A stretch of 64,000 nucleotides of DNA from Pseudomonas phage pPa_SNUABM_DT01. Position 1 is the first letter of the stretch. The number at the start of each line of letters is the position of its first letter. Of this stretch, positions 29,501-52,126 are shown piece after piece. The stretch lies in sequence record MW735835.1. One strand, given 5' to 3'. The position numbers were made by a program, and so were the translations under genes. The notes under the pieces were generated by a model. That model was given only the letters and a program-made list of their open reading frames with translations, searched no databases and was not told the origin of the DNA.

Positions 29501-30912
29501 AGAACCTCAAGCAGAAAGAGATCATCACTTACGGTGGCCGTGGTGGCCGCAGTAGTCGGTCGATGACTGCTGAATCGCGTCTGTACAAGGAAAGCGACAT
29601 CGGGTTCATCTCGGAATCCACCGTGGACTCCGGTGACGTGGCGGTAATCACCTACATGTCGCCGAACGCGAACATCACCAGTGTGCGCGGCACGATTCGG
29701 AAGTACGATAAGGAAAAGGACGGCGCAGCTAACATCGTGTCGACCTCTGCCCTGATCTCTCCGTTTGCTGACCGAGACGACCCTAAGCGGGTGAACTTCA
29801 TCGGTATCCAGCAGTCTCACGTGATCTCTTCCGAGGGCTACCGTGAGTCCCCCATCAGCACCGGCTACGATCATGTTCTCGCTCACCGCGTGGATGAGAT
29901 CTTCGCCGTACCCGCCAGCAAGAACGGCGAGGTGGTGGAACGCACCGACGAGCACATCGTTGTTGCGTACGAAGATGGTACCTTCGAACACCTTGACCTG
30001 AGTACGCAGTACGGTATCTCGGCAGGGGCAGTCTACCCGCAGTACCAAGCCTCCACGTTCCAACTGGGCGACAAGGTCCAGAAGGGCGACATCCTCAAGT
30101 ACAACTCGGGCTTCTTCAAGCCGAGTCGTTTCCACCCACGTCAAGTGCAGTGGAAGGCTGGGGTCATCGCTCGGACGGCTTTGATGGAAGCCTCGTACAC
30201 CCTCGAGGACTCCTCGGCAATCGACGACTGGCTCGCCAAGCAATTGGGGTCGGAAGTCACCAAGGTCAAGACCATTGTTGTACGGTTTGACCAGACCATT
30301 CGGAACCTTGTCAAAGAAGGCGAGCATACGGACATCACCAGTATCCTATGCACGATTGAAGATGCTGTAACGGCGGATTCTGGACTCTTCTCTGACGATG
30401 ATCTCGACATCCTTCGCAAGATGGGCTCGGCTACTCCTCAAGCAGGGGCAGTTGGCGAAGTCTCGAAGATCGAGGTCTTCTACCACGGCGACCCGGACGA
30501 CATGTCGGATTCGCTGTTGGAGCTGGTGACCGCTCACGACAAACAACGCCGTAAGGCTGCGAAACGTCTGGGCATGGTTCCGTTCACCGGTCAGGTCGAC
30601 CAATCCCTTCGTATCGACGGGAACGGTCTGGAACTCGATCACGTTGCCATCAAGGTCTACATCACTCACCGTGAAGGCATGGGTGTCGGCGACAAGGCAG
30701 TGTTCTGTAACCAGATGAAGACAGTAGTGGGCCATCGTCTCGACGGGGTCAACGAAACTGCTGACGGGACAAAGATCAATGCCATCTTCGGTGCCAAGTC
30801 CGTAATGGACCGTATCGTCAGCTCGGCTTTGCTGATCGGCATGACGATCTCGACACTCACCGCTATTGGTGAGAAGGCCGCGGACATGTGGACTAACGTG
30901 TCCGAGCAGTGA
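26521..30912 (+). CDS. multisubunit RNA polymerase beta-like subunit, unsplit, 1463 aa
   Basis: Overlaps the upstream gene by 23 nt (translational coupling). Remote matches to bacterial beta from memory: YGGRGGRSSRSMTAESRLYKESDIGFISESTVDSGDV vs LGPGGLTRERAGFEVRD...CPIETPEGPNIGLI, and GDKAVFCNQMKTVVG vs GDKMAGRHGNKGVIS. Size is close to bacterial beta. Confidence 0.5.
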   Translation: MGVMFLYDRYVKLFGIRRLGEMENPRVRPIARFGLPRGTNFHYQPMNETELGPSGTSPVIAAAQRLVYIDHVPDLLAKEGNPRPTFKLLAPMMQQYRRENMQIRPMKDYDQAAKEPLNMIVVNYAMVSQMFKYQRSALSRWWAWRNLRGTQWERFNRMKTTHERHHIVVFDCPNSLPALSDLRKAERAMTPALMQVFNTRERLDLLDLFIWLGENRKSTPMGVLDESRLHEIDLIIRRETGFISINLGLLNSFRKAGAGVSMESFADQPVSEDFDFEETYQRYVSMEMAGDDTLDEDMQVSMEAAPGLDPKIIQLRFLKLLTKIIDQTNPIVTAPAEQQVEAMTEAKAEEEAAQAEEEQAQEEQLLAETGADELLVNEEEELAAALDEPAQPANDSELTDEDGNLIIETGNQNKEAEIQVVGTSNITHTLTSTIQSKIEDLVDKELITAAQYRRMQRLAESYKTMENPWDKSKTVEQSLEIPFEDLALQESENYPQMDAIRDQSMRQSTVEKMDSQYIEKVMKGDILNAVMSVQKAGIAVTGYEIETVKDAVSNYEIHRIQLTPVTGKPSTISFRVPIVDKRGVYISNGQRYRMRTQKADVPIRKVSPIRVALTSYYSKMFVERSQRATFNYDAWVGKQIIAKGLDPADTSITNVKVADVADYELDVPTAYTVIGSRVMSFEANGHYWFDYKNRERSRLFDMKLVEKIEAEHKGMIVCGRRDQRYITVDKDNAFYLLDEKTGQVTELGQIEDVLALQRDKSPVGMAEISIFGKIMPIGIALSYLLGLDRLLEMTKAKYRVVPLGTRLQMSDDEYAIKFLDETLVLEKSDVQSSLIFAGFLHYHKHIRSFSRHSFNAKDVYFNILEANGIGLRYMRELDLMNAMWVDPITKGILEWMKEPTEFVPLLIRAVELLVTRYVPQNVEGADGLVEGQERAKGYERIPGAIYGELVRSIRVYNSRSASNTSSVSMKPHEVWTNIVQDPASALVDDINPIQNLKQKEIITYGGRGGRSSRSMTAESRLYKESDIGFISESTVDSGDVAVITYMSPNANITSVRGTIRKYDKEKDGAANIVSTSALISPFADRDDPKRVNFIGIQQSHVISSEGYRESPISTGYDHVLAHRVDEIFAVPASKNGEVVERTDEHIVVAYEDGTFEHLDLSTQYGISAGAVYPQYQASTFQLGDKVQKGDILKYNSGFFKPSRFHPRQVQWKAGVIARTALMEASYTLEDSSAIDDWLAKQLGSEVTKVKTIVVRFDQTIRNLVKEGEHTDITSILCTIEDAVTADSGLFSDDDLDILRKMGSATPQAGAVGEVSKIEVFYHGDPDDMSDSLLELVTAHDKQRRKAAKRLGMVPFTGQVDQSLRIDGNGLELDHVAIKVYITHREGMGVGDKAVFCNQMKTVVGHRLDGVNETADGTKINAIFGAKSVMDRIVSSALLIGMTISTLTAIGEKAADMWTNVSEQ

Positions 30913-30992
30913 CAAAGTAGTCGATAGTCCGGGAGTCGCAAGGCTCCCGGACCTTCCTTTACAGCGCCTCGAATTTTCACAGGAACTTGCTC

Positions 30993-31187
30993 ATGAGCAA
31001 TGCCAACACCTTCGACAACCTCGCGGTCATCGCGGGGGCTGTTGACCTCTCCGTGGAGATCGTCAACAACCTGGCGGGTAACCTCGTCTCCAGTTATCTG
31101 GACGGCGCACCGGTGAACGACCGCACCATTGCTGCCATTGCAGCTGCCGACATCAACAACGTCATCGAGGGCCGCGACAATGCTTAA
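30993..31187 (+). CDS. small hypothetical protein, 64 aa
   Basis: SD AGGAA; ATGCTTAA overlap with the next gene. Confidence 0.45.
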   Translation: MSNANTFDNLAVIAGAVDLSVEIVNNLAGNLVSSYLDGAPVNDRTIAAIAAADINNVIEGRDNA

Positions 31188-32532
31188 CCGCATCGCTATT
31201 GAAGCCGCCCTGCCAGTCGCTCAGCGTCTGGACGAGCGCAAGCTGCGCGTTCTGCCTGACCAGAACACCCCGCTGCTGAGCCTGACCATGGCCGTGGACC
31301 ATACCCTGGTCGACAACGCCTTGGGCAACAACAGCGACATCGTGGCTGTCCTGCAATCCCGTTCCAACGGCGACGCCCACCGCGTGGCCAAGGCCGACAT
31401 CATCCGTCTGGCCTCCCTGTCCATCGCCCGTCTGCACGACGTGACCCGCACCACCGTGCTTCCCCACATCAAGGAAGTCGCTGCCAAGGTGCAGGAGTAC
31501 GTCAATGCCCGTCGCCTCGAGGCTTCCCTGCCTTATTCCGTGGTGATGCGTGAAGTGCCGCCGGTGTATTCCAACGCCGCGCTGCGCACCCTGGCCGAAC
31601 GCTATCCCGCTGCCTCGCAGCTGGACTACATCGTCCGCAACATCGCTCCGATCACTCTGGAGCGTGTGAAAGAACTGTGCAAGACCGGCATGGCTGGTTT
31701 CGACAGCGAACTCGACGTGACCCTGTCCCAGGGCAACAACGAAGGCTACGCTGAAGTGCTGCAAGTGCTGACCGGCGCCAAGGGCCCGCAGCAGATCTGC
31801 CCGGACTACCTGCCCGGTGTCCTGGTGACCGCTCAAGCTCTGTATGACGCCCCGGAACCCGGCGTGCAGATGACCCTCGTTGAATACAACGACCAGGTCA
31901 ACCGCCTGCTGGCCCGTACCGCTGCGCTGGTGAAAACCGCTCAGCTGCGTTACGACGAGCAAGAGAAGTTCGGCAGCCTCTACAGCGATCGTCCGCGCGA
32001 AAGCCTGACCGTCATCGAAGTGATGGGCAAGCCGTACCGCGCCCTGCTCGAGAAGGGCCTCACCCCTGAAGCACTGATCGGCAACGACATGTCCGGTCGT
32101 CGTTTCAAGGAAGGCGAACTGCTCGAGAAGAAAGCCCTGCTCGAGTCCGTCTACACCCGCGAGATGAACCTGCGTAGCGTCAAGGTACAGGCCGAGATGG
32201 CCGGTATCGTGCGCGATGCCATCAAGGTCGTCGTGGGCGAGTCCATGATCGAGAAGCAACTCGGCGAGAAGGCCGCCGATGCCAACGCTCGTCTGCTGCA
32301 ACTCGTGGCGAAGATCACCCCGCAGAACTGCGATGCTCTCAACCTGCTGGTCGAGGAAATCATCTGCGACGTGTTCTACCCGGAAACCGACGCCATCACC
32401 TTCATCCGCCTGATGAACCAGGCTGGTAAGGCCGTGGCCGAAGATACCGACCCGCGCGAGATCGCCCTGCTGGCGACCATCAAGTACGTCAACTACTGGC
32501 TCTGCCGGCAGATGGGCTTGGTGTCCGCTTAA
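31180..32532 (+). CDS. hypothetical protein, 450 aa
   Basis: Start coupled to the upstream small ORF. Confidence 0.6.
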   Translation: MLNRIAIEAALPVAQRLDERKLRVLPDQNTPLLSLTMAVDHTLVDNALGNNSDIVAVLQSRSNGDAHRVAKADIIRLASLSIARLHDVTRTTVLPHIKEVAAKVQEYVNARRLEASLPYSVVMREVPPVYSNAALRTLAERYPAASQLDYIVRNIAPITLERVKELCKTGMAGFDSELDVTLSQGNNEGYAEVLQVLTGAKGPQQICPDYLPGVLVTAQALYDAPEPGVQMTLVEYNDQVNRLLARTAALVKTAQLRYDEQEKFGSLYSDRPRESLTVIEVMGKPYRALLEKGLTPEALIGNDMSGRRFKEGELLEKKALLESVYTREMNLRSVKVQAEMAGIVRDAIKVVVGESMIEKQLGEKAADANARLLQLVAKITPQNCDALNLLVEEIICDVFYPETDAITFIRLMNQAGKAVAEDTDPREIALLATIKYVNYWLCRQMGLVSA

Positions 32533-32542
32533 CTACGTCACC

Positions 32543-32568
32543 AGCCGGAGGGGTAAAACCCTCCGGCT
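32543..32568 (+). terminator. hairpin (no U-tract)
   Basis: Stem AGCCGGAGGG / CCCTCCGGCT (loop gtaaaa) directly after stop 32532. Confidence 0.4.
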
Positions 32569-32586
32569 ATCATCAGGATTTTCGCA

Positions 32587-33318
32587 ATGAGCATTAAATC
32601 GAGCCAGTTCATCCGAGACGCTGCCCGTGTCCACAAGGCCTGGGAGAAAACCTCTGAAGGGTCGATGGTGGCGCTGAAGCCGTTGAAGGTGTACATCCCT
32701 GCTCGGTTCCCTCAGCGCGAGTTGGCCTTGTTCGAAGACGAGATCACCTTCGTCGGTATCTGTGCAGTCGTGTTGGAAGACAAGTACTACATGGCTTCAC
32801 GGATCTGTGCTCCGATCCGCAGTGAACCCACGCTGGTCAACAACGTGGTGATTGATGATGTCGAGTACATCGAGATGCAGTACGAACCGGGCGACCGAGT
32901 CATTTGCTCCGAAGACCTCGTCATGATCGACAACCTGCTGTATCGGATCTACGACGAGATCATCGCGAAAGGGCGCGTACCGTGGTACGTCTCTTACCGC
33001 GAACTGGGTGGCATCTTTGCTACCTCGTTGAAGCACGCTGGTGTCCGCGTGGGTAAAACCCCCACGGTGATGGAGATCATTGCCAGTGCTATTTGCCGTG
33101 ACTCTGAGGACCTCAGACGGTATTACCGTCAAACCGTGGAAACTTATGAGGATATCACGGCGAATCCGCCTACCATCATTCCGCTCCGTAACGTCAGCTA
33201 CGGTGCCACCAACACCATCGCAAAGCTAACCGGTTCTCGCTTCGACGAAGGTATGACCGCTGCAATCGTCAACCCCGGCGAGCGTGTCGAGAGAACCGAG
33301 CGGGTACTCCGAACGTAA
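32587..33318 (+). CDS. hypothetical protein, 243 aa
   Basis: SD AGGA upstream of the ATG. Confidence 0.6.
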   Translation: MSIKSSQFIRDAARVHKAWEKTSEGSMVALKPLKVYIPARFPQRELALFEDEITFVGICAVVLEDKYYMASRICAPIRSEPTLVNNVVIDDVEYIEMQYEPGDRVICSEDLVMIDNLLYRIYDEIIAKGRVPWYVSYRELGGIFATSLKHAGVRVGKTPTVMEIIASAICRDSEDLRRYYRQTVETYEDITANPPTIIPLRNVSYGATNTIAKLTGSRFDEGMTAAIVNPGERVERTERVLRT

Positions 33319-33330
33319 AAGGATTCCGAC

Positions 33331-34116
33331 ATGGAACGAATCATTTATCAATGTAACGTGTTGAAGGGCATCAATAAGGTTGGGGACCTGAAGAAGCTCG
33401 ACAACGGTTACGTAGAAGTGCGCCTGGGGGCCATCGGGGCCTTCAACAGCGCAGGTTGGCTCTACCGTGAGGAAGAGGGCCGTCGTCTGCTCGAGGGTTC
33501 GGGCGGTCTGATGCGCATGATCAACCAGAACAACACCCTGCGTGGTGAGTGCGGCCATCCGCGCTTCCAGCCGGGCATGAGCCAACTGGCTTGGTTCACC
33601 CGTGTCAACGACATCTTCGAACCGAACACCTGCTTCCACATGCGCCGCCTGATGCTGGCGCCTGGCAAGGACGAGCAGGGTCGTCCGGTCACCGACGTGC
33701 TGGCTGAAGTCCGTGCCTCGGGTAAAGAAAGTGCTTGGTTCGACAAGCAGCTGGAGAACCGTGACGAGAACGTCTGCTTCTCCATCCGTTCCTTCACCGA
33801 AGACAAGGTCATCGGCGGCGTCAAGACCAAGCTGCTGAAAAAGATCGTGACCTGGGACACCGTCAACGAGCCTGGCATCGCCAACTCGTCCAAGTACGGT
33901 ACCCCGTCGCTCGAATCGGCCTCGTCCGACATCATCCTGCCGGAAGCCGAGCTGGAACACGCCTTCTTCGTCGACGCTCTGCGTACCGAAGCCAAAGCCC
34001 TGCCGGTCGGCGTGGGTGAAGGTGTCAGCTTCGAGAGCGGCAGCAACGTCATGTCCCTCATTGCTGAGATCGAGCGTCCTATCCGGGCCTTCGTTCCCAG
34101 TTCCTGGAGGTGGTAA
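33331..34116 (+). CDS. hypothetical protein, 261 aa
   Basis: SD AAGGA upstream of the ATG. Confidence 0.6.
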   Translation: MERIIYQCNVLKGINKVGDLKKLDNGYVEVRLGAIGAFNSAGWLYREEEGRRLLEGSGGLMRMINQNNTLRGECGHPRFQPGMSQLAWFTRVNDIFEPNTCFHMRRLMLAPGKDEQGRPVTDVLAEVRASGKESAWFDKQLENRDENVCFSIRSFTEDKVIGGVKTKLLKKIVTWDTVNEPGIANSSKYGTPSLESASSDIILPEAELEHAFFVDALRTEAKALPVGVGEGVSFESGSNVMSLIAEIERPIRAFVPSSWRW

Positions 34117-35406
34117 ATGCAAGACTCCATCAACTCGGCGTTGGTGGGGGCTGCTGACCAGCTGGAGTCGGAGATTTCTCTGGCTCCAGCCCTTCCCGTT
34201 ATTTCTGAGTTGGCCGATATCGAGGACAGTCGTCTTCTCCTCGAAGGTTGCGTCGAACAGATGACCATGGCCGATGGTTCGGTCGTGGATGTACTGGAAG
34301 CTGAGCAGACCTACCGTGATTGGCGAGCGAACCACACCGACCTGGTGCCTGGTCACGCCGTTACTGGTGATGCGCTGGTGGATGAAATCCGCGCCACCAT
34401 GGAGATGCTGAACAATCCGTCGATGGAATCGGATCTGGTGCAGCAGCTCAAACGTACCTTCTTCTCTATGTCGACGGCCATGAAGACCTTCGGCAAGAAC
34501 CTGGTGGATATCAAGGCTGCGCTGGGCACCAAGAAGACCGCCATTGCTGCCAACCCGGTCCTGATTGGGTCGCCTGCTGCGTACGGGTTCCTGACCCGTG
34601 ACAACAAGGCAGTGGACATCGGCAGCACTTCGCTGGACGAGGACATCAAGTTCATCGATCTGGCCACCGAGCACTACCAGCGCATGTTCGACAAGTCGGC
34701 TGAGCTGGGTAAACGGTTCCGTGAAGCTTGCACCAGTGACAGCAACGAGAACATCCGTGAGGCCATCGACTTCTTCGATGACAACATGGTGGACCGCAGT
34801 CAGCTGGAAGACCTCACCAAGTTTCATCTGCTGGGTAACCGTACTGTCTACCTGGACAAGCATGGCTACCCGCAGTTCAAGAAGTCGGGCAATATCTGGA
34901 AAGCCGCCTTCGGTGAATCCGGTGGTCTGATGCCTGCATTGGCGAAGAAAAAGGTCCATGGCTTTGCTATCGGCGGTCCGCTGAAGGCAGTCTCGGTCCC
35001 GGGCATGAACGACGTGGCAGCGAAACGCCAGGTCAACGCAGCCATCAAAGCCAGTGGTGGGGAAACCGCAGTCGGCGAGTTCATGAGCACCTTGGACAAA
35101 GCCATCCTGCTGAACAACCGTGCTGTCAGGTTTGCACAAATGGCAGCATCGATGAGTGAGCGCGTGCAGCGCCTCTCGGCTGACATGGAAGACGCGTACG
35201 ACCATGTCAACGACGAAAAGGTACTGCATGAGAACCTCATCCGTATTCGGGAACTTCGGTCGCTGTACCGCACTGGTCGTCGGACTGTAGCGCAGTACAT
35301 GTTCCTGGGTAAAGCCATCGCCACCATGATGGAAGACCATGCGTCTTACGTTTACCGCAACATCACTCTTATCGCCAACGACGTCCTGAAGAAGGCATCG
35401 AAATAA
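34117..35406 (+). CDS. hypothetical protein, 429 aa
   Basis: Start abuts the previous stop (TAAATG); SD GGAGG. Confidence 0.6.
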   Translation: MQDSINSALVGAADQLESEISLAPALPVISELADIEDSRLLLEGCVEQMTMADGSVVDVLEAEQTYRDWRANHTDLVPGHAVTGDALVDEIRATMEMLNNPSMESDLVQQLKRTFFSMSTAMKTFGKNLVDIKAALGTKKTAIAANPVLIGSPAAYGFLTRDNKAVDIGSTSLDEDIKFIDLATEHYQRMFDKSAELGKRFREACTSDSNENIREAIDFFDDNMVDRSQLEDLTKFHLLGNRTVYLDKHGYPQFKKSGNIWKAAFGESGGLMPALAKKKVHGFAIGGPLKAVSVPGMNDVAAKRQVNAAIKASGGETAVGEFMSTLDKAILLNNRAVRFAQMAASMSERVQRLSADMEDAYDHVNDEKVLHENLIRIRELRSLYRTGRRTVAQYMFLGKAIATMMEDHASYVYRNITLIANDVLKKASK

Positions 35407-35417
35407 GGAATTGCGCC

Positions 35418-36677
35418 ATGCGCCAAAACTCCATCCTGCAACACGCACTGAACGTGTCTGTTGAATCCCAGCAGGCCGATGCGGCCATTGAAGAGCTGGT
35501 CAGCGAACAAGCCATCGAAGGCATCATGCCGGCTCCCCAAGCGCTCGAAGAGATCGCTCAGGTAGAAGGCGACATCGAGACCCTCGACCAGGTCGAACAA
35601 ACCCTGGGTAGCGACGGCGTATCCCTCGAGTCCCTGGCCCACGCCCGCGGCATCATCGACGCCATCGGCCTGCGCTACGGCGCCACCAGCACCTACGCTT
35701 CCATGGAATCGGCCGACGACTACCGCCTGAACAAGGACGCGATCCTGGCCGATCTCCAGCAGTACCGCACCGGCCTGGAAAGCCACATCACCGCTTCGAT
35801 GGAAGGTTTCTTCCTGGCCGGTAACAGCCTGAAGAACATCGGTAAGAATATCGATGTGATGAAGAAGACCATCACCGTCCTCAAGTCCAGCGAAAACGAA
35901 AAGATCAAAGAGATCAAGTTCGGCACGCTGAAGCTCTTCCTGCGCATCGGCGGCGGTTTCCCGCAAGACCTGCCGCGTGCCATCAAGGAAGTGGGCCGGG
36001 GCCTGGAACTGGCCAACAAGCACTCCGATGACGTCCTGGGCGCTGCGCAACGTGCTGCCGAGATCGCCATCAAGACCGACTGGTCTGACCTGAACGCTGC
36101 CGACAAGGCCCGTGAGCAGATCAAGGGTATCAACCTGGACCTGGCCAAGATCTCCTCCGATCTGAACGGTTTCCCGATGTTCGGCAACCGTGCCTTCGGT
36201 GTGAAGATCAAAGGTGACGCCGGTGAGCTGGGCGAGTGGAACAAGAAGTACTCCTTCGGCGCTGGCACCCCCAACGCTGGCTTCCTGCGCACCACCATCA
36301 TGATGGTAGGTCTGGCCCTGAGCCTGACCTTCAGCCCGCTGGGCGGCATCCTGATCATCGTGGCTGCCGGTAACGCCGGTGGCGGCAAGCGCGAGATCCC
36401 GATCAAGGACTTCGCTGCTGGTCTGAGTGACTACGCCAAGTCCGCTGAGAAGGTGTACGCTCAGCGCGGCAACGCCATCAAGAAGAGCACTGTCCACAAG
36501 AAGCTCATGGGCGACCTGAAGAACGTCAAGGGCCTGCCCAAGGACGTCCGCAAGGCCATCGCTCGCGCTTCCAGCTTCGGCTGGAGCATCTCCAACGGCG
36601 TCTACGACGTTGTGGAGCACAGCGTCTACGCACTGGCTGCTGCCAGCGTGAAAGCTGCCTACAACACCGACGACTGA
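35418..36677 (+). CDS. hypothetical protein with a TM segment, 419 aa (probable structural)
   Basis: SD AAGGA; hydrophobic stretch TTIMMVGLALSLTFSPLGGILIIVAAG. Confidence 0.6.
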   Translation: MRQNSILQHALNVSVESQQADAAIEELVSEQAIEGIMPAPQALEEIAQVEGDIETLDQVEQTLGSDGVSLESLAHARGIIDAIGLRYGATSTYASMESADDYRLNKDAILADLQQYRTGLESHITASMEGFFLAGNSLKNIGKNIDVMKKTITVLKSSENEKIKEIKFGTLKLFLRIGGGFPQDLPRAIKEVGRGLELANKHSDDVLGAAQRAAEIAIKTDWSDLNAADKAREQIKGINLDLAKISSDLNGFPMFGNRAFGVKIKGDAGELGEWNKKYSFGAGTPNAGFLRTTIMMVGLALSLTFSPLGGILIIVAAGNAGGGKREIPIKDFAAGLSDYAKSAEKVYAQRGNAIKKSTVHKKLMGDLKNVKGLPKDVRKAIARASSFGWSISNGVYDVVEHSVYALAAASVKAAYNTDD

Positions 36678-36684
36678 TCGTCAA

Positions 36685-36718
36685 CATACAGGGAGGAGCC
36701 TAGGCTCCTCCCTGTATG
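36685..36718 (+). terminator. terminator hairpin fused to TATGCCG motif
   Basis: Stem CATACAGGGAGGAGC / GCTCCTCCCTGTATG (loop ctag). The 3' arm ends in TATG, continuing as TATGCCGTGTG. Confidence 0.55.
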
Positions 36719-36730
36719 CCGTGTGTTCGA

Positions 36731-36770
36731 TTCGATTCCAATATTTTTCAATGATACATGATACCAGTGA
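36731..36770 (+). promoter_or_regulatory. copy 2 of conserved AT-rich upstream element
   Basis: TTCGATTCCAATATTTTTCAATGATACATGATACCAGTGA; 45 nt upstream of ATG 36816. Confidence 0.5.
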
Positions 36771-36815
36771 CTAAGGAGAATAATCTCCCTTAACCATCTC
36801 CCTGGAGGAGTTATC

Positions 36816-36956
36816 ATGAAAGAGTTCCTGCTGCTTAGTGTAGGTGTTGGTCTGGGTTTCTGGCTCCGTGGTCGTTTCGACGCTGAGAAGAAGCTGAAGG
36901 AAGAGAACATCATCCTTCGCAACAAACTGAAACCCGAAGAAAACAAAGGCGAATAA
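36816..36956 (+). CDS. small single-TM protein, 46 aa
   Basis: MKEFLLLSVGVGLGFWLRGRFDAEKKLKEENIILRNKLKPEENKGE; SD GGAGGAG. Below the 60-aa cutoff of the ORF track. Confidence 0.4.
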   Translation: MKEFLLLSVGVGLGFWLRGRFDAEKKLKEENIILRNKLKPEENKGE

Positions 36957-36958
36957 CC

Positions 36959-37096
36959 ATGGTCGGCTTTAACCCCTGGATCGACACCGCGATCATCTGC
37001 GCTCTCATGGCCATCTGCGCCCTCGGCTGGTATGCTGAGGTCAAGTGGAACAAGCGCAAGCAATCCCAACTGCGTGGCGCTACCCGCGTCGCGTAA
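36959..37096 (+). CDS. small single-TM protein, 45 aa
   Basis: MVGFNPWIDTAIICALMAICALGWYAEVKWNKRKQSQLRGATRVA; starts 3 nt after the previous stop. Confidence 0.35.
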   Translation: MVGFNPWIDTAIICALMAICALGWYAEVKWNKRKQSQLRGATRVA

Positions 37097-37152
37097 CAAC
37101 CCCGCAACACAAACCCAACGCAATACCCTTTCCACTACTGGAGATACGTAAC

Positions 37153-37425
37153 ATGGCATTCCTCGAAACCCTGAAGCAACTCGGTCAAGTCGTCGTCGAA
37201 GGCGTCAAGAACCATCCCATCGCTGCCGCCGGCATCGGCGTAGGCACTGTCGCCACCATCGGTGGTGTCAGCTACTACCGCCATCGCAAAGGCAAGAAGC
37301 TGGCCGAAGCTGCCATGACCACCCTCGGTTATGACAAGAACAACCCGGCCCAGCCTCTGGCTGAACCCGCCGTCGCTGCTGCTGAAGCTGCCCCCGCTCC
37401 CACCGAGCCGGCGCCTCAGCAGTAA
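37153..37425 (+). CDS. small membrane protein with Gly-zipper TM and Ala/Pro-rich tail, 90 aa
   Basis: MAFLETLKQLGQVVVEGVKNHPIAAAGIGVGTVATIGGVSYY...; the track ORF 37045.. starts too early. Confidence 0.5.
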   Translation: MAFLETLKQLGQVVVEGVKNHPIAAAGIGVGTVATIGGVSYYRHRKGKKLAEAAMTTLGYDKNNPAQPLAEPAVAAAEAAPAPTEPAPQQ

Positions 37426-37440
37426 CGACCACCGAAAGAA

Positions 37441-37467
37441 AGGGCCTCCGGGCCCCTTCTTTTTTGC
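37441..37467 (+). terminator. intrinsic terminator
   Basis: GC stem AGGGCC / GGCCCC (loop tccg) followed by TTCTTTTTTG. Confidence 0.5.
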
Positions 37468-37478
37468 CCTGAGAGATT

Positions 37479-37509
37479 CCATTCAAGGAATTCTCAGAGA
37501 TACATTATC
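37479..37509 (+). promoter_or_regulatory. copy 7 (divergent) of AT-rich element
   Basis: CCATTCAAGGAATTCTCAGAGATACATTATC; about 100 nt upstream of ATG 37613. Confidence 0.35.
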
Positions 37510-37612
37510 AACGTGTATATTGGAAGCAGTGCGTAAATAAAAACGCAACGCGCTGAAGATGTGCGACAACACGTGTTGATCGATCATTTCTACATCCCTA
37601 GGAGTTACACCA

Positions 37613-38092
37613 ATGAGTGAAGTTCTGAACAAAGTCAGCCAGGCCATGAAAGACGTCGCCGCTCAATTCGAGAGCGCTGTTGGTTTCGACGACGATGGCG
37701 CAGCTGTACTGCCCGAGACCTGGGTCAAGGACAACCTGGCACTGGCCTCCGGTAGCGAAGAGCTGAGCCTCGAGACCGTCAACCTGGTGCAGAACACCGA
37801 AGCCACCTTCGCCGGCGGCATCGCCCTGGGTCTGGGTAACTCCGGCCTCAAGCGCATGCAGGAAAAAGCCGACCTGGAACGCGTCTCCGCCTCCGTCGAC
37901 TTCGGCAGCAACACCATCCGCGCCTCCGTCGATCGCCAGATCATGGTCCGTGCACCGGGCTCCACCGAAGAGAAGCCGAAGCACGGCAACGTCTCCGTCA
38001 AGCTCGATTCCGGCGCTGCCGCGAAGAAAGGCGACCTGAAGCGCGTCGTTACCCACGTGAACGAAGCCTTCACCGCCGCCTTCAGCAAATAA
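37613..38092 (+). CDS. hypothetical protein, 159 aa
   Basis: Strong SD TAGGAG; followed by a terminator. Confidence 0.65.
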   Translation: MSEVLNKVSQAMKDVAAQFESAVGFDDDGAAVLPETWVKDNLALASGSEELSLETVNLVQNTEATFAGGIALGLGNSGLKRMQEKADLERVSASVDFGSNTIRASVDRQIMVRAPGSTEEKPKHGNVSVKLDSGAAAKKGDLKRVVTHVNEAFTAAFSK

Positions 38093-38110
38093 GCTGATCG
38101 CCCCGGCCCG

Positions 38111-38160
38111 CATCCAGCCGCTCTCGTAGCGGCTGGATGTTTATGCCCTTAATTTTTTCT
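38111..38160 (+). terminator. intrinsic terminator followed by TTTATGCCC
   Basis: Stem CATCCAGCCGC / GCGGCTGGATG (loop tctcgta), then tttatgcccttaattttttc. Confidence 0.55.
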
Positions 38161-38182
38161 CTGATACCAAGGACGCACCACC

Positions 38183-38728
38183 ATGGACAAGAAGCAATTC
38201 GTGAAGGATGAGCTGAAGACGCTCGGCGAAACACTGCTCGGCCTGGGTTACTACTTCCGTCTGATCATGACTGACGACATCGACAGCATGACCCTGATCC
38301 GCGAACGGGCCAAAGAAAAGGTCTCCCACGCCAGCAAGAAGGAATGGGGCCAGGAGTTCTACAACGGCCTGTGCATCGGCGACGCCCTTCAGGAACGTGT
38401 GGATGCGCTGGTGCGCCAGTACAAGCCCGAGGTACTGGCCCTCATCAAAGGCAGTCGTGAAGAGCTGGATCAGCTCGGCATCGAGGTCATCGAAGACAAG
38501 CAGCAGAAAGCCAACCTGCTGATCTTCTCCTGCTGCGGCATGGGCTTCTTCATCTCCGAACGTATTCACAAGCCTCGTGACCAGCGTGCTCGCCGTACCA
38601 CTATGGCGGATGTACGTCACCAGGCCCTTTCGACGCCTCCGGCCAAGCCGGCTGCGGCGCACAAAGACCAACCGGTGACTCGCAACAAACGTCGACAGTT
38701 TGTGACCATCCGTCGCATCGTCAATTGA
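38183..38728 (+). CDS. hypothetical protein, 181 aa
   Basis: SD AAGGA upstream of the ATG. Confidence 0.6.
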   Translation: MDKKQFVKDELKTLGETLLGLGYYFRLIMTDDIDSMTLIRERAKEKVSHASKKEWGQEFYNGLCIGDALQERVDALVRQYKPEVLALIKGSREELDQLGIEVIEDKQQKANLLIFSCCGMGFFISERIHKPRDQRARRTTMADVRHQALSTPPAKPAAAHKDQPVTRNKRRQFVTIRRIVN

Positions 38729-38773
38729 TCCGCGAGTGGGGAGTGCGTTGACGCTCCCCTACTGAGGTGTCTT

Positions 38774-39289
38774 ATGAAAGCGCTCACCCCTATTGAAGGC
38801 GCCTTGATTGGAGCAATGCAGGCGGCTCGTCCGTACATCCAGCGCTCATTGCTCGAACAGCAAGTGTGGACGTACCAGTTTGGTGACGGTCCTACTTACC
38901 CCGAGGACTTCACGATCCTGGACAGTCTGGACAGCGATAACGACATCATTGAATTGCGCTTCACTCCGACCAACCGGCCGGATTATGAACTGCGCATCTG
39001 GGTGAAGTTCATCGAGGCTCCGACCAAGCAAGTGACCGACCACCTCGAAATCGATGTCAACCTGACGCATGGTGCTGTCTACATGGAAGGCGCTACTTGC
39101 GAGTGTCACTCCGAAGAGTACAACATCGTCCAGGACATCGGGACGGTCATCAATGTCATCGCGAACATGGACCTGTGCTTCAAGGTGCGCGCCGAAGCTG
39201 CGGCTGCCCTAGCACAAGTCGCCCAAGCCCAGACCGAACGAGAAGAACGCAAGGCGCGCTTCTCCGTCGTTGAAGGCACCAAGCATTAA
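38774..39289 (+). CDS. hypothetical protein, 171 aa
   Basis: SD GAGG upstream of the ATG. Confidence 0.6.
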   Translation: MKALTPIEGALIGAMQAARPYIQRSLLEQQVWTYQFGDGPTYPEDFTILDSLDSDNDIIELRFTPTNRPDYELRIWVKFIEAPTKQVTDHLEIDVNLTHGAVYMEGATCECHSEEYNIVQDIGTVINVIANMDLCFKVRAEAAAALAQVAQAQTEREERKARFSVVEGTKH

Positions 39290-39301
39290 GGCCCAGCCAG
39301 C

Positions 39302-39670
39302 ATGGAACTTTTCGATTATTACGTCGAACCTGTGGTCAATGTAGAGACAGCCTTTAACCATGTGGCCTTAGAGGCCGCTATAAGGCTCATAGAGAGCGAT
39401 TCAGACGTTCACCCGTACAATCCCTCTCAACGCATTGATCTACGTGCTATGACGCACGTGGAGAGCATTAATGCCCTGCGTGAGCTGATCCATATGTCTG
39501 GCTTCGAACTGGACATCAACAAGATCCTCTGCGAGAACAACCGTTTAGAGACCCCGTACGAGCGCACCATCAAGAAGGCGTTCATGACGAATCACTACAT
39601 GGTCGAGTCCTCAAAAGGCTGGCTGGTCTTCGATACTCATGTGGACACTCACATTGAGGTCTACAAGTGA
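39302..39670 (+). CDS. hypothetical protein, 122 aa
   Basis: ATG with AAGG upstream. Confidence 0.55.
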   Translation: MELFDYYVEPVVNVETAFNHVALEAAIRLIESDSDVHPYNPSQRIDLRAMTHVESINALRELIHMSGFELDINKILCENNRLETPYERTIKKAFMTNHYMVESSKGWLVFDTHVDTHIEVYK

Positions 39671-39675
39671 ATACT

Positions 39676-39697
39676 GGGGAGAGCGCTTGCTCTCCCC
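39676..39697 (+). terminator. hairpin followed by TATGCCG motif
   Basis: Stem GGGGAGAGC / GCTCTCCCC (loop gctt), then gcTATGCCGTGTC. Confidence 0.5.
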
Positions 39698-39708
39698 GCT
39701 ATGCCGTG

Positions 39709-39747
39709 TCGATTGAAAAGTTTTACAGCAATACATGATAGCAGTGA
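39709..39747 (+). promoter_or_regulatory. copy 3 of conserved AT-rich upstream element
   Basis: TCGATTGAAAAGTTTTACAGCAATACATGATAGCAGTGA; 35 nt upstream of ATG 39782. Confidence 0.5.
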
Positions 39748-39781
39748 GTAACCACCATCCTATCCATCCTGGAGATGTATC

Positions 39782-41419
39782 ATGAGTAAAGTTGCAAACG
39801 TAACCATCATCGAAGGCGCTGACAAGATGTTCAAGACCGGCAAGGTCGTCAACACCTTCAAGCTCCTGGAACAGTCCGCTGTGCTGCTGCACGAAGGCAA
39901 GCCCAGCGTGAACCTGCAAGACACCGAGACCCTGATCGTCCGCCGTGGACAGTACGGCGCCATCAATATCAGCATGCTGACCGGTGAAGGCGATGGCGAA
40001 CTGGGCATCAAGATCACTGCCGATGGCCAGGGCTTGGAAGACTGCCACGCAGATCGCACTGGCAACATCATCATGCGTTGGGCCTATTCCAAGATCAAGG
40101 AAGAAGGTCCGTCGCTGTCCGGTGGTGTCGACGATCGTCACGAGCTGGAAGAACAGCGTCGTGATCCGGCGGCCGTGGCCGCACGTGCTGCTCAATCGGG
40201 CGGGCCGGACAACCTGGCCGAAGCTGCGTTCATGGAGAAGATCATCGACATCGAGGCTCACCACAACTCCGACATCAAGACCTCCTTCAACCGCCACGGT
40301 GTGAAGGCAATCCTGACCTGGGCACATCGTCAAGACCTGGACGGCGCCTCGGCAATGGCGCACGAAGGCAAGCTGGTCGATGACACCATCGAAGTCCTGG
40401 CCCGCAATATCCGGGAATTCCCGGAATCTCCGCGTGATCTGCGTGTTGCCCTGAAGGCCGATCCTGCTGGCCTGGGGATCGACGTCGTGGTATTCGGTCG
40501 CACCACTGACCTGTACCGTGTCGACATCGTCAACAACGACCTGAACCTGGTTCATCGCAACTTCGCAGTCAGCAAGGACATGCCGATGGTGATCATCAGC
40601 GACGTTACCATCAACGGTACCGCGCCGGTGACCATGGCTCGTCTGCCGGTGAACGAAGTCACCAGCTTCAACCAGACCACTGCCGATGTGAAGTTCGACG
40701 CGCTGATCCTCAACGCTGACCTGGAGCACGTGATCGCCTACTTCGGTCCCGAGCAACTGGATAAGCTGGTAGGTTACGTGGTCACCGAGGTCTTCAAGGA
40801 CCCGACCGTGACCATGAAGTGGGTGGACAGCATCAACGTCCGTCTGGTCGACAATGCTGATGGCTACTTCCTGGTTGTGGAAGTGGTGCAGCAAGGTTCG
40901 ACTCCGTCGTACGTCGGCGAGCTGTACTCGGTCAACGAGAAGGGTATCCTGATCGAGGACCACAACGTGGCGTTCGCTCTGCACCCGGGCTGGACCATTC
41001 AACTGACTGGCTTCCGGGCTACCCCGGCCAGTGTGCTGATGGGTCGCAGCCATCGTCCTCGCCTGCATGCGGATCGTGACTTCGGTCGTGGCCGTGAGCT
41101 GGGGGATTACGAACGTCTGGGCCCGCTGTCTGGTGGTCAGGAGGAAGAAGAGCAGCGTCGTGAAGATCCGGTCCGTATCCCGAACCGCGAATGGATTCCG
41201 CAGATCAACCAGTTCGTCCACATCGAGGGCGAGCCGACTCTGTACTTCATCGCGGACTACGACCAACTGGAACATCGCTTCCTGCTCAAGCAAGCCGACA
41301 GCAGCCGCCGTGAACGCGACAGCCGTCTGGACAGCCGTTACCGTGACAACCGCAAGAACGCCGACGGCCTGATCCCGGTTGAACCGGGTCGTCTGCGCCC
41401 GTTCACCTTGTTCCACTAA
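39782..41419 (+). CDS. hypothetical protein, 545 aa (probably abundant structural protein)
   Basis: SD GGAGA; preceded by terminator, TATGCCG and AT-rich element; followed by a strong terminator. Confidence 0.65.
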   Translation: MSKVANVTIIEGADKMFKTGKVVNTFKLLEQSAVLLHEGKPSVNLQDTETLIVRRGQYGAINISMLTGEGDGELGIKITADGQGLEDCHADRTGNIIMRWAYSKIKEEGPSLSGGVDDRHELEEQRRDPAAVAARAAQSGGPDNLAEAAFMEKIIDIEAHHNSDIKTSFNRHGVKAILTWAHRQDLDGASAMAHEGKLVDDTIEVLARNIREFPESPRDLRVALKADPAGLGIDVVVFGRTTDLYRVDIVNNDLNLVHRNFAVSKDMPMVIISDVTINGTAPVTMARLPVNEVTSFNQTTADVKFDALILNADLEHVIAYFGPEQLDKLVGYVVTEVFKDPTVTMKWVDSINVRLVDNADGYFLVVEVVQQGSTPSYVGELYSVNEKGILIEDHNVAFALHPGWTIQLTGFRATPASVLMGRSHRPRLHADRDFGRGRELGDYERLGPLSGGQEEEEQRREDPVRIPNREWIPQINQFVHIEGEPTLYFIADYDQLEHRFLLKQADSSRRERDSRLDSRYRDNRKNADGLIPVEPGRLRPFTLFH

Positions 41420-41433
41420 TCCTGGACAGACGG

Positions 41434-41478
41434 CATACAGGGCGCCCATTGGGCGCCCTGTATCCGTTTCTTTTTTTT
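41434..41478 (+). terminator. intrinsic terminator
   Basis: Stem ATACAGGGCGCCC / GGGCGCCCTGTAT, then cgTTTCTTTTTTTTGTTT. Confidence 0.65.
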
Positions 41479-41492
41479 GTTTCCAGCAAGCC

Positions 41493-42359
41493 TTACAGCT
41501 TGATGAAGGTGCGGTTGAACTCCGCAACTTGCTCGGTGTAGCCCACGTTGTGCTTGGCCACGTCCGCTTCCACACCGGTCATGAAGGCCGGCTTCAGGTT
41601 CGGAGAGGTACCGGTCTTCGGCATCGCGTCCAGCAGTTGCTGAGCGAAGCGATCGACCGCGAGACCTACCTGCTGCATCCCGGTGAACGGGATGGACAGG
41701 ACAAGCTCCTCGCCATCGGCGGTCTTGTCACGACGGCCGGTGAAATCACCGGCAGTGGTCGGGTACATGTTGGTGATGAGCCACGCCGAGTTGACCTTGG
41801 TGAAGGACGGGTCCGGCTCGAAGGCGATGATGCTCATCGAGTAGATGTCCGGCAGCAGGTCGGTCGGGCGGTTGACGCGGGTAGCGATACCCGGCACCTT
41901 CGAATCCGGGTCCATGATCAGTTCGGTGATCCAGGATTCGAAGAACCGCTGAACCGGACGACCGTACTTCTCACGGATGGTCATCGAGGGGTCGGAACGC
42001 TGACGCGTCACGTTGCTCGGGGTCTGTTGCATTTCGCCAGCACCCGACACCGGCGCTTCGACGCTGTTCACAGTCAGGGTACGGTTGAAGCCGTCCCAGG
42101 TCTGTGCGTGCATCTCCACAATGCCCTTGAGGGCCTTGTAGTAGCTGTCCGGGTTGTCCAGGTATTGGAAACCACGCGGCGCTTGCAGAACCTTGATGAT
42201 CAGGTTGCGGCGTACGTAGTCGGTGTTGGCATGGAAGTAACGGAGGTCCGACTGGTAGGCGTTTTGACCGCCCAGTGCCAGGTTGACCATCGGCGAGTTG
42301 TTGTACTCGCCGTAACCCAGGCCGTTACCCAGGAGAGTGTCGCGATGACGGACGCCCAT
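41493..42359 (-). CDS. hypothetical protein, 288 aa
   Basis: Start shares nucleotide 42359 with the stop of the upstream minus-strand gene. Confidence 0.6.
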   Translation of the reverse strand: MGVRHRDTLLGNGLGYGEYNNSPMVNLALGGQNAYQSDLRYFHANTDYVRRNLIIKVLQAPRGFQYLDNPDSYYKALKGIVEMHAQTWDGFNRTLTVNSVEAPVSGAGEMQQTPSNVTRQRSDPSMTIREKYGRPVQRFFESWITELIMDPDSKVPGIATRVNRPTDLLPDIYSMSIIAFEPDPSFTKVNSAWLITNMYPTTAGDFTGRRDKTADGEELVLSIPFTGMQQVGLAVDRFAQQLLDAMPKTGTSPNLKPAFMTGVEADVAKHNVGYTEQVAEFNRTFIKL

Positions 42360-44419
42360 TATGCAGTCTCCGCACCAGAGGTACGACGGCCGGCAACGAT
42401 GGTCAGAACTTCAACCGTCTTCATGCCGTCGAACAGGCCTTCGATGTCCGTGTGCCAGCTGTAGCCGCGCTGGGTGTCAGCCGCGGTGTAGTAGGAACTC
42501 GGGGTGATGTCGGCACGACCGTCGTAACGATCCTTGATCTGCCCTTCGATGAAGCGGTCCACGTTCACCGCGTACTCGTCCGCAGTCATGCGGCTGTCGC
42601 CAGTGAACATGCGCCAGGCCAGCTCACCGATACGGTTGAGGTGGCAGCAGATCGCCATCGGGAAGAACGAGTTGAGGACCGACGTGTTGTCGTGGTAGAC
42701 GGTCTGGATACCCGGGAAGAACACTTGACCGCGATGGTCGAAGGGTTCGGCCGAGGAGATACCAGCTTGCCAGTCGGTGTTGCGCGGCTTGACCGGACGG
42801 AACTTCGCGTTGTGGTTCACGAAGCGGGTCACGACGCGGTAGGTGCTGTTGTCCGGCGCGTAGCCGGCACGCATGCGCTCGCCACCCATGTAGGTAGCGA
42901 CCTTGACCGCGAAGTCCACGGTGAACGGCAGGATGCCGTCGTACGGGGAGTCCAGGTACTCACCAGCGTGCTTCATGACGACAGCACGGCAGGCGCCGGT
43001 GTTGTAGAATTCCGACTCCGGCACGAGGCTCAGCGCGTTACGCAGCATGGCACCGATGCTGGAATCTTCTTCCGGGGTGTTCAGGGGCTCGTTGACGTCC
43101 TGAGTGGAAGCCAGGACCCACGCGTCCGGACGGACCGCCATGACGTTGGCCATCAGCTTCTTGGTTTCGAGGCTGAAGCCGGTGTCGATGAAGGCCGACA
43201 TCGGGAAGCTGGCACGGTCAGCGTACGGCACGTCGCCTTCGCCGAACACGTTCAGCTCGTCCTGGACCGCTTGGTCGTAGTCCTCACGGGTCACGTCGCC
43301 GTCATCACCGCCTTGCAGCCAGTGAGTGGCGGTCTCGCCGAACAGAACACCGTTACCGGCCGGGCCTTCCACCTTGACGGTGTAGTACGGCACGCCGTTG
43401 ATGTTCACGCCACCAAACAGGTTGATGGTTTGCTCGGGGGTGACTTCGCCTTCGATCAGGCCGTACTCTTCTTCGGTCGCGAAGACCTGGTCGAGAACGG
43501 TCTGGACGTGCTGGCTGTAGACGTAGAACGTCTTCAGCGGACCGTAGCCGGAGAACACCTCGGGGTCGTTGTTCTCGAACGCCTTGAGGATGCGCTTGTC
43601 GTAGCTGTAGTTGATGTTGGTCTTCGGATCGACCACACCGGTCTTCAGCGAGAACTCGACGGACGGATCGCCGTTCAGGTTCATCAGCACCTGGCCGGTG
43701 CTGTTCTGGTTCGCGCGTTCCAGAATCGACAGGCGGTACAGGAAAGCACCTTGGCTTTCTACCAGCTCGGCGTTGGCCGGGGTGCTGGAGTTGGTGGTCG
43801 GGGCCACCAGACGCAGACCGAAGTTCTTGCCCTTCGAACCTTCGAAGCGAGCTTCGATGTCGAAGAACGGGTACATGGTCGAAGCCTTGCCGTCGTAGTT
43901 GGTCATCAGACCAGTGGTCGGGCTGGCGTTGCGCACGCCTTCTTCGCCACCGATTTCCTCGACGGCCCAGCGGATGCGGTTGCCGTCCAGCGGTTCACCG
44001 GTTTCCACCAGTTGACCGTCGGTACGCTTGAAGCTGCCATCCGGGTTACGCTCGTACTGAGCGATCTTGTCGTCGACGATGTCGCACCAGACGCGCAGGG
44101 TAGCGGTCTTGGCGCCGTTCGCTTTCATACGACGGACCAGGGACATGGCGCCGGTTTGCAGAACTTTCTGCAACATGGCAGCCTGGTGGCTCAGGAACGG
44201 GGAGCCTGCGCCGAAGGAATCGGCACCGTAGATGGTGTTGAAGCCTGCACCCGAAACCAGCAGAGCGGTATCGGACGGACCCCAAGAGGTGAACAGCGGG
44301 GTCCAGGGCAGGAAGATCGGCAGATTGACGATCTCCAGCGGCTGACCCTGACCGCTCACATCTTTGAAACCGAGCACCTCAGTGCGCGGCAAAGACGAAG
44401 CCATCGAAACAGACGACAT
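42359..44419 (-). CDS. putative major capsid protein, 686 aa (size-based guess, phiKZ gp120-like)
   Basis: The track start 44539 (MWWWYRT...) has no SD. The internal ATG 44417-44419 (MSSVSMASSLPR...) has GGGAGA 7 nt upstream. Sits in a head/packaging block near the terminase. Function is inferred from size and context only. Confidence 0.3.
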   Translation of the reverse strand: MSSVSMASSLPRTEVLGFKDVSGQGQPLEIVNLPIFLPWTPLFTSWGPSDTALLVSGAGFNTIYGADSFGAGSPFLSHQAAMLQKVLQTGAMSLVRRMKANGAKTATLRVWCDIVDDKIAQYERNPDGSFKRTDGQLVETGEPLDGNRIRWAVEEIGGEEGVRNASPTTGLMTNYDGKASTMYPFFDIEARFEGSKGKNFGLRLVAPTTNSSTPANAELVESQGAFLYRLSILERANQNSTGQVLMNLNGDPSVEFSLKTGVVDPKTNINYSYDKRILKAFENNDPEVFSGYGPLKTFYVYSQHVQTVLDQVFATEEEYGLIEGEVTPEQTINLFGGVNINGVPYYTVKVEGPAGNGVLFGETATHWLQGGDDGDVTREDYDQAVQDELNVFGEGDVPYADRASFPMSAFIDTGFSLETKKLMANVMAVRPDAWVLASTQDVNEPLNTPEEDSSIGAMLRNALSLVPESEFYNTGACRAVVMKHAGEYLDSPYDGILPFTVDFAVKVATYMGGERMRAGYAPDNSTYRVVTRFVNHNAKFRPVKPRNTDWQAGISSAEPFDHRGQVFFPGIQTVYHDNTSVLNSFFPMAICCHLNRIGELAWRMFTGDSRMTADEYAVNVDRFIEGQIKDRYDGRADITPSSYYTAADTQRGYSWHTDIEGLFDGMKTVEVLTIVAGRRTSGAETA

Positions 44420-44437
44420 TGTAATGTCTCCCATGGG

Positions 44438-52121: not shown

Positions 52122-52126
52122 TGCGG

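Follow-up and report, generated by a model that had tools for sequence, protein, structure and literature searches.

Intergenic GC-rich hairpins joined at their 3' side to the motif TATGYYGT recur in a 64-kb stretch of the genome of Pseudomonas phage pPa_SNUABM_DT01 (record MW735835.1; ~56% GC), referred to below as the window. These elements very probably function as phiKZ-type transcription terminators of a Chimalliviridae jumbo phage; they are of a terminator kind known in phiKZ-like phages and found here in another phage. Each element comprises two parts, namely, a GC-rich RNA hairpin located 3 to 18 nt past a stop codon and a conserved single-stranded tail, TATG-Y-Y-G-T, which either overlaps the last base pairs of the stem or begins no more than 5 nt past it. 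The tail would stand in for the U-tract, and transcripts most likely end in or just past it, as in phiKZ. An original prediction, made from the letters of the window, had also proposed that the hairpins are terminators, and this part is upheld by their placement at gene 3' ends and by the match to the phiKZ terminator consensus. It had further proposed that transcription restarts at once at the TATG of the tail, a proposal that fared less well (see below).

Judged by the proteins encoded in the window, the phage is a phiKZ-like, nucleus-forming jumbo phage of the Chimalliviridae. These proteins include a 1463-aa beta subunit of the virion RNA polymerase (vRNAP), which displays 39% identity to phiKZ gp178 and to the protein of Xanthomonas phage RTH11, as well as terminase, tail sheath, virion proteins, a head maturation protease, and the PhuZ tubulin. 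The gp178-like vRNAP beta subunit, found together with PhuZ, terminase, and tail sheath, indicates that the phage has its own multisubunit RNA polymerase (RNAP), as expected of a phiKZ-like phage. Sigma-70-like promoters are few (1 versus 6.3 expected in positions 30000 to 49999), which fits a phage bringing its own polymerases. The genes of the window were roughly mapped from codon statistics, and all of its DNA palindromes and hairpins with a stem length of 9 bp or more were listed. Neither Rfam matches at the gathering threshold nor tRNAs were found in the whole window. Relatives were not recovered by megablast of positions 35000 to 42000 against phage records, by tblastn with a 545-aa window protein, or by a search with the 419-aa protein encoded upstream of the 36685 site. 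Use of the terminase as the query afforded 55 IMG/VR loci (terminase identity of 39% to 90%), many of them on contigs of 250 to 277 kb; removal of near-duplicates left 44 loci totaling 783 kb, window included.

The sites on which the original prediction was based are all present in the window, with TATGCCG directly 3' of plus-strand hairpins at 36715, 39700, 57288, and 61458, TATGCCC at 38142, and the related TATGCTG and TATGTTG after the hairpins at 3671 and 52157, respectively. The hairpins at these seven sites are GC-rich and stable (-20 to -32 kcal/mol; z of -3.6 to -7.7 versus shuffles). The list was incomplete: minus-strand hairpins at 7897, 41431, and 52124 are likewise followed by TATGCCG, and TATGTCG or TATGTCC occurs on either side of the palindrome at 16271-16308. 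TATGCCS as such is about as frequent in the window as expected by chance (9 matches versus 8.2), indicating that the signal is positional. Eight of the nine matches adjoin the 3' side of an intergenic GC-rich hairpin, the sole match away from a hairpin, at 53812(-), being located inside a gene. Likewise, 15 of the 122 TATG sequences on both strands of the window fall at positions -4 to +6 relative to a hairpin 3' end, versus 0.71 expected (Poisson P of ~2e-15). The motif does not occur at a similar frequency away from hairpins, and a chance origin of the association between hairpin and TATG is excluded. In the window as a whole, TATG is depleted (122 versus 230 in dinucleotide shuffles), and it is about 2-fold rarer than expected in coding regions (55 versus 109 in synonymous-codon shuffles; z of -7.3). 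TATC and GATA are equally rare in genes (z of ~-6); avoidance of TATG in genes was therefore dropped as a functional signal, since it reflects a general avoidance of TAT/ATA that is not specific to TATG.

The association extends to the relatives. In an unbiased test of 4-mers in the last four stem bases and the following 8 nt of 274 GC-rich hairpins, taken on both strands (547 ends), TATG showed the strongest enrichment of all 4-mers across the 44 loci (160 of 547 ends versus 6.9 expected). The same test detected TATG in positions 100 to 150 kb of phiKZ (17 versus 2.6 expected) and in the cultured, 58.5%-GC Xanthomonas phage RTH11 (16 versus 0.8 expected). Anchored on TATG, the logo of the 160 tails reads (C)(T)N-TATG-Y-Y-G-T, with a T at position -2 in 102 of them. 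GC-rich hairpins of at least 9 bp are present in 65 of 79 convergent gaps, 88 of 238 co-directional gaps, and 1 of 79 divergent gaps. Of the tails, 83 are convergent, 45 sense and 19 antisense co-directional, and 1 divergent, and none was found at the 98 hairpin ends located inside genes. This distribution indicates that the element marks transcript ends and is absent where transcripts only begin. The placement at gene 3' ends includes bidirectional sites between convergent genes.

The terminators of phiKZ provide the closest known counterpart. ONT-cappable-seq of phiKZ revealed 133 termination sites, 61 of which share the motif BCCYCCCCHWWDGGGRRGGBYTTATKYYGT (Putzeys et al. 2024, microLife, PMC10914365). 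The same motif (motif A) is present in 59 terminators of phage 201phi2-1, eight terminators of which were shown by a two-reporter assay to stop transcription in uninfected cells of Pseudomonas chlororaphis (PMC11512511). The window tail TATGCCGT is an exact instance of TATKYYGT; with respect to the longer form TTATKYYGT after the stem, the tails of the window read TATGCCGT/C, the leading T being often absent. Similar to the terminators of phiKZ and 201phi2-1, the window elements consist of a GC-rich stem-loop followed by (T)TATKYYGT, are located just after genes, exist in palindromic bidirectional versions between convergent genes, and are often followed ~20 to 30 nt later by an AT-rich early promoter, a candidate one in the window, in a phage with phiKZ-type multisubunit RNAPs. 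They differ from those of phiKZ in that the genome is richer in GC (56% versus 37%), the tail is more often TATGCCG, and the Ts preceding TATG are mostly replaced (CTG/CGC-TATG), leaving almost no U-tract.

The phiKZ transcript ends used for comparison were rows of a bioRxiv supplement, covering transcription start sites (TSSs) P001 to P126 and transcription termination sites (TTSs) T034 to T076, as taken from the machine-read text of the PDF; the TTS strings span positions -60 to +40, position 60 being the mapped 3' end. In these rows, the mapped 3' ends lie within ~3 nt of the tail G. Three pairs, T059/T060, T070/T071, and T051/T052, form bidirectional palindromes of the type ACRRCATAA...TTATGYYGT located between convergent genes, and T057 (AACAGACATAGGCCCTCCCttcgGGGAGGGCTTTATGTTGT) is followed by an early promoter 20 nt further on. 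By analogy, transcript 3' ends would form at the elements of the window in its own phage.

Comparison with other hairpin-containing signals further defines the element. As in canonical intrinsic (Rho-independent) terminators, a GC-rich hairpin located right after a gene is followed by a functional segment of ~8 nt 3' of the stem. Unlike in these terminators, the specific sequence TATGYYGT takes the place of the U-tract, and tails such as TATGCCGT do not provide at least 5 Ts in the 8 nt after the stem. Ordinary T-run terminators are also present in the window, e.g., at 18406(-), 37435, 55579, and 58638. N4-type promoters consist of a short DNA hairpin of 5 to 7 bp with a 3-nt loop, located upstream of the start, before early genes. 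This identity was rejected for the window elements, which have stems of 9 to 17 bp and loops of 3 to 7 nt and are located after stop codons and at convergent gaps.

Conservation of the elements was analyzed at orthologous sites. In the syntenic relative L004, recovered by an exact-pattern scan, the flanking genes display ~70 to 77% identity to those of the window and the intergenic element 83%. The ortholog of the 36685 terminator in that relative carries compensated changes in the stem, with TATGCCGTGT unchanged. Downstream from the terminase gene, 34 distinct relatives carry the element at the orthologous position, all with CATA...TATG flanks. All 34 sequences maintain stem pairs 3 to 9, each of these pairs occurring as two to four Watson-Crick types, which is clear compensatory covariation. 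An exact 18-mer, CCTCCCTGTATGCCGTGT, is present twice in L001/L002 (IMGVR_UViG_3300037294_000266; 266.6 kb; 48.5% GC), a lower-GC member of the same clade, with a terminase displaying 82% identity (locus L028), indicating that distant genomes may share even segments of the stem.

At gaps between convergent genes, both strands carry the tail, so that its complement, ACRGCATA, appears on the 5' side of the hairpin and the pairing of CATA with TATG makes the stem look longer. The 5'-side CATA of palindromic sites is thus the tail of the other strand. The original description of TATG as the last base pairs of the stem is valid for palindromic sites (36685, 3641, 52127, 16271, and 41433 on the minus strand) and not for 38142 and 39700 (TATG begins 3 nt past the stem). 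Only 5 of 45 co-directional sites have the mirror CATA, and TATG is usually located 0 to 5 nt past the last pair at such sites. The lack of CATA at most of these sites indicates that the tail is a single-stranded element in its own right. The reading that the motif serves to pair CATA with TATG was rejected for the same reasons. On the sense strand of co-directional sites, the stem mismatches consist of 12 G.T versus 0 A.C, indicating that the structure is selected on the transcript strand. These features bear on whether the palindrome acts as DNA, i.e., as a protein-binding site or a cruciform involved in replication, packaging, or the nucleoid, with no relationship to transcript ends. Such a role would account for the near-perfect palindromes that many sites form in DNA and for the conservation of their outer arms (ACRGCATA...TATGCYGT), but we consider it extremely improbable, since the tail is asymmetrically distributed at co-directional sites (45 sense versus 19 antisense), the mirror CATA is mostly missing there, G.T mismatches are confined to the sense strand, the inner stem sequence is free to vary, and the elements are always placed just after stop codons. 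The strand asymmetry and the G.T bias contradict a DNA-level function of the palindrome.

The original prediction relied on a short TATG motif marking phiKZ late start sites, which is correct. The late promoters of phiKZ, recognized by the non-virion RNA polymerase (nvRNAP), have the core 5'-TATG-3' with transcription starting at the G, TATG being necessary but not sufficient (Yakunina 2015; PMC4666361, PMC12809450). There is no conservation after TATG in these promoters, and a pocket in the beta-lobe of gp123 binds the non-template TATG (IUCrJ 2026). The tail might thus be a late promoter fused to the terminator, with transcription stopping at the hairpin and restarting immediately at the G. 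The four bases are the same, in a phage family with the same kind of polymerase, and units lacking an early-type promoter tend to end at TATG-tail terminators. Moreover, at some sites, e.g., at 61458 and, in distant relatives, ahead of the terminase gene, the tail is separated from the next gene by 18 to 40 nt in which no further promoter motif is seen, and the phiKZ late TSSs P049 and P075 lie 5 to 10 nt past terminator tails in the supplement rows.

Several lines of evidence nevertheless make a restart at the tail very unlikely. For a majority of the tails, no gene in the same orientation follows: 83 of 160, including three of the eight hairpin-associated TATGCCS sites of the window, are located at convergent gaps and face the antisense strand of the neighboring gene, with nothing co-oriented to express, whereas only 1 of 79 divergent gaps contains such a hairpin. 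TATG is followed by YY in 91% of the tails versus 15% of the TATG sequences in hairpin-free divergent gaps and by YYG in 71% versus 5%. The conserved YYGT is not a feature of late promoters, which lack conservation past TATG, and distinguishes the tail from TATG in gaps that contain only promoters. Late promoters also differ from the tails by the absence of an upstream hairpin, as illustrated by the canonical phiKZ late promoter P119L. In the supplement rows, no same-strand TSS is located at the tail TATG of the phiKZ motif terminators T034 to T076. Late TSSs P075 (at T064) and P049 use a second, separate TATG located 5 to 10 nt beyond the tail (...TTATGCTATGT), and the other motif terminators in these rows have promoters 20 to 45 nt downstream. 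All relatives retain the hairpin that precedes the essential terminase gene, yet many close ones have lost its TATG or have TGTG or TATT instead, the window itself having TGTGCCG. Immediate restart at the tail is thus not borne out, the tail being the end of the phiKZ terminator consensus, although a minor promoter role may exist at sites such as 61458. The variant tail found upstream of the terminase gene, TGTGCCGT, also occurs after a terminator-like hairpin in the distant Xanthomonas phage RTH11 (L061, ~4590), where it replaces TATGCCGT.

With the elements read as terminators, genes that begin 18 to 40 nt after a tail would probably be expressed by partial read-through. This explanation is simpler than a promoter at these sites, because phiKZ terminators T044, T050, and T074, which are comparable to them, have no mapped TSS in the supplement rows and because TATG is lost and the hairpin kept upstream of the terminase gene. 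Other observations weigh against termination. The tails contain almost no U-tract, and a scan for T-run terminators misses the elements at 36685, 38111, and 39676; termination by the usual weak hybrid is therefore not obvious, and a specific reader of the tail, which could be the polymerase or a factor, must be assumed. Such a reader is likely. In addition, no promoter other than TATG was seen before the next gene at sites such as 61458 or the one preceding the terminase gene in distant relatives, and 3' ends obtained by ONT sequencing do not separate termination from processing or from trimming back to the hairpin.

The latter point is relevant to RNA processing or stability, in which an endoribonuclease of the host or of the phage would cut the single-stranded UAUGYYGU and the hairpin would shield the new 3' end. 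Mapped 3' ends would then be processing products rather than termination sites. The single-stranded and sequence-specific character of the tail, the selection of the structure at the RNA level, and the short distance to the next gene at sites such as 61458 are compatible with cleavage. Since downstream ends with a 5'-monophosphate are invisible to cappable-seq, cleavage would also fit the lack of TSSs at tails in the phiKZ rows. We nonetheless regard processing as an unlikely explanation: we know of no nuclease with UAUGYYGU specificity, and the bidirectional use of the element between convergent genes is typical of terminators. The 201phi2-1 terminators are furthermore active in a two-reporter trap in uninfected cells, even though cleavage could also lower the downstream signal in that assay (PMC11512511).

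Terminator-promoter modules, as originally proposed, do occur at three sites, but their likely promoter is an AT-rich element rather than the TATG of the tail. This element is present 22 to 31 nt after the tail at 36745, 39722, and 57319, as initially noticed. It had been assigned to the 5' untranslated region (UTR) of transcripts starting at TATG, which is contradicted by its being a separate, oriented motif and by the presence of an upstream terminator at only half of the copies. The window contains four strong copies (36745, 39722, 54369, and 57319), and the loci contain 37 copies, all in the sense orientation relative to the next gene, most of them ending 35 to 52 nt before the start codon. 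A TATGYY tail is found upstream of 18 of the 37 copies, tightly spaced at 27 to 31 nt (17 to 33 nt overall), and none is found at the other 19. The copy at 54369 is not preceded by a hairpin, indicating that the AT-rich element is independent of the terminator. The orientation, the spacing to start codons, and the half of the copies that lack a terminator suggest that the element is likely an independent early-type promoter, often abutting a terminator, and not a 5' UTR. A new early-type unit would accordingly begin with a separate AT-rich promoter of ~40 nt right after the tail.

Similar to the early (vRNAP) promoters of phiKZ, the AT-rich element is a long conserved motif that is oriented toward small genes and lies at a fixed distance upstream of their start codons; in many cases, a terminator tail precedes it at a fixed spacing. 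In the supplement rows, the terminator tail is located ~45 nt upstream of the TSS of phiKZ early promoters P001, P017, P028, and P099, which is the layout found at 36715, 39700, and 57288 in the window. The cores differ, since ATACAT[G/A][A/G]TA..AGTGA is found here versus TATATTAC for the phiKZ AT-rich consensus, and the resemblance is only loose (ATACATGATA versus TATATTAC). Weaker copies with the core ATACATTAT are located at 12065-12092, 37490-37520, and 60365-60395. The copy at 12070 points to an erroneous gene call in 12093-12844, in place of which the open reading frame (ORF) at 12108-12914 (+) may be the real gene. Separately, TATG followed by A, G, or T occurs in hairpin-free divergent gaps at ~54340(-), 44537(-), 44473(+), 5063(+), and 8839(-) and is conserved across the orthologous gaps of many relatives. 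Examples include cgtatcgcTATGatact and caaaatagTATGtggtgg upstream of the tail sheath gene, as well as acgaatggTATGgccctt. From their sequence conservation, these sites look like candidate true late-type promoters.

The class of terminator is associated with the type of promoter. In the loci, where terminator classes were assigned to units by a sensitive hairpin scan, the ratio of T-run to TATG terminators is 14:6 for units with an AT-rich promoter versus 16:67 for the others (Fisher p = 2.6e-5, with orthologous sites counted repeatedly). In the window, the units beginning at 36745, 39722, 54369, and 57319 end at T-run hairpins, and the hairpin at 38111, which combines both tail types, closes the unit begun by the weaker copy near 37490. 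This association, together with the TATG pocket of gp123 and the 3' ends located at the tail G in the phiKZ rows, leads us to propose, as a speculative idea of low probability, that TATGYYGT is a sequence-specific stop signal read by the nvRNAP rather than a degenerate U-tract. During elongation, the non-template TATG would be captured by the promoter-reading beta-lobe pocket (the gp123 homologue), causing the enzyme to pause when its active site is close to the G, ~4 to 9 nt past the stem, and the hairpin would then release the transcript without the need for a U-tract. Retention of the tail in phages of 56 to 58% GC, in which the flanking Ts are lost, supports this idea. There may thus be two terminator classes for two phage polymerases, T-run terminators serving the units with AT-rich (virion RNAP) promoters and TATG-tail terminators the nvRNAP units. 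Our literature searches did not retrieve a published statement linking the terminator tail to the late promoter. The RNA-binding protein ChmC was considered as a reader of the tail and rejected, as its published binding is near start codons, with no motif reported.

Table 1. Predicted terminators and promoter-like elements of the window
Feature	Position	Strand	Description
Terminator	36685-36722	+	15-bp stem CATACAGGGAGGAGC/GCTCCTCCCTGTATG, loop CTAG, tail TATGCCGT; -30.6 kcal/mol, z -7.0; 7 nt past stop of gene 35418-36677, last gene of the head-protease operon
AT-rich promoter-like element	36745-36770	+	TTTTCAATGATACATGATACCAGTGA; candidate early/vRNAP-type promoter; starts 30 nt after tail TATG, ends 46 nt before ATG at 36816
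Terminator	38111-38149	+	12-bp stem, TT, TATGCCCT, then T-rich run
Terminator	39676-39707	+	Stem GGGGAGAGC/GCTCTCCCC, GC, tail TATGCCGT
AT-rich promoter-like element	39722-39747	+	Starts 22 nt after tail TATG
Terminator	57264-57295	+	Stem AGCGGAGGGC/GCCCTCCGCT, tail TATGCCGC
AT-rich promoter-like element	57319-57344	+	Starts 31 nt after tail TATG
AT-rich promoter-like element	54369-54394	+	Divergent gap, no hairpin upstream
Terminator after PhuZ tubulin gene	61426-61465	+	Tail TATGCCGT; next start codon only 30 nt after TATG, with no other promoter motif between them; tail kept at orthologous site in L005-L012
Bidirectional terminator, convergent genes	3637-3680	both	Palindrome AACATAC..GTATG; tails TATGCTGC (+), TATGTTTG (-)
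Bidirectional terminator, convergent genes	7897-7942	both	Tails TATGCCGC (-, 7897-7903), TTTTATGCG (+)
Bidirectional terminator	16269-16311	both	Perfect 17-bp palindrome GACATAGGGCCCAGGGC.. at 16271-16308; tails TATGTCGC (+), TATGTCCG (-)
Bidirectional terminator, two tail types	41431-41485	both	Minus strand, TATGCCGT, end of virion-protein gene 41493-42359; plus strand, TATCCG then T-run, end of unit begun at 39722
Bidirectional terminator after terminase gene	52124-52163	both	Tails TATGTTGT (+), TATGCCGC (-)
Hairpin upstream of terminase gene	49831-49868	+	Variant tail TGTGCCGT at 49857-49864, A to G in TATG (TGTGCCG)
T-run unit end	37435-37468		
T-run unit end	41433-41485	+	
T-run unit end	55069-55150		
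T-run unit end	55579-55618		
T-run unit end	58638-58685		

Two other regions of the window merit mention. Positions 55633-55830 (+), located in the 400-nt gap 55574-55973, are non-coding and conserved, with 76 to 88% identity in at least 12 relatives, which exceeds the 70 to 77% identity of coding DNA (one relative compared, L004). This region starts at the conserved TAGTATGC and ends in the hairpin GTGAGGCGAAGCCTCAC. It contains a core rich in purines (GGGAAGGAAAG.GAAGGGGG) as well as a stem, AAGACTAAT/ATTAGTCTG, in which changes are compensated. No Rfam match was found for 55633-55830, which is, from its sequence, a candidate structured non-coding RNA (ncRNA) of ~200 nt with a TATG-type start. 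The 448-nt gap at 63383-63830, located after a T-run terminator, contains no confident ORF, and several relatives share ~130 to 240 nt of it at ~70% conservation; a small gene or a further ncRNA could be located there.

Together, these results extend the phiKZ terminator motif across a large uncultivated, GC-rich clade (contigs of 250 to 277 kb) with clear covariation in the stem. In this clade, the U-tract has eroded and TATGYYGT has been kept, indicating that the tail, rather than U-richness, is the selected part of the signal. Since the core of the tail is also the core of the late promoter, the element bears on what the nvRNAP recognizes beyond TATG and on how multisubunit polymerases devoid of a sigma factor terminate transcription. 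The hairpin with its TATGYYGT tail and the AT-rich element would also provide ready markers of transcription-unit boundaries in metagenomic contigs of the Chimalliviridae.

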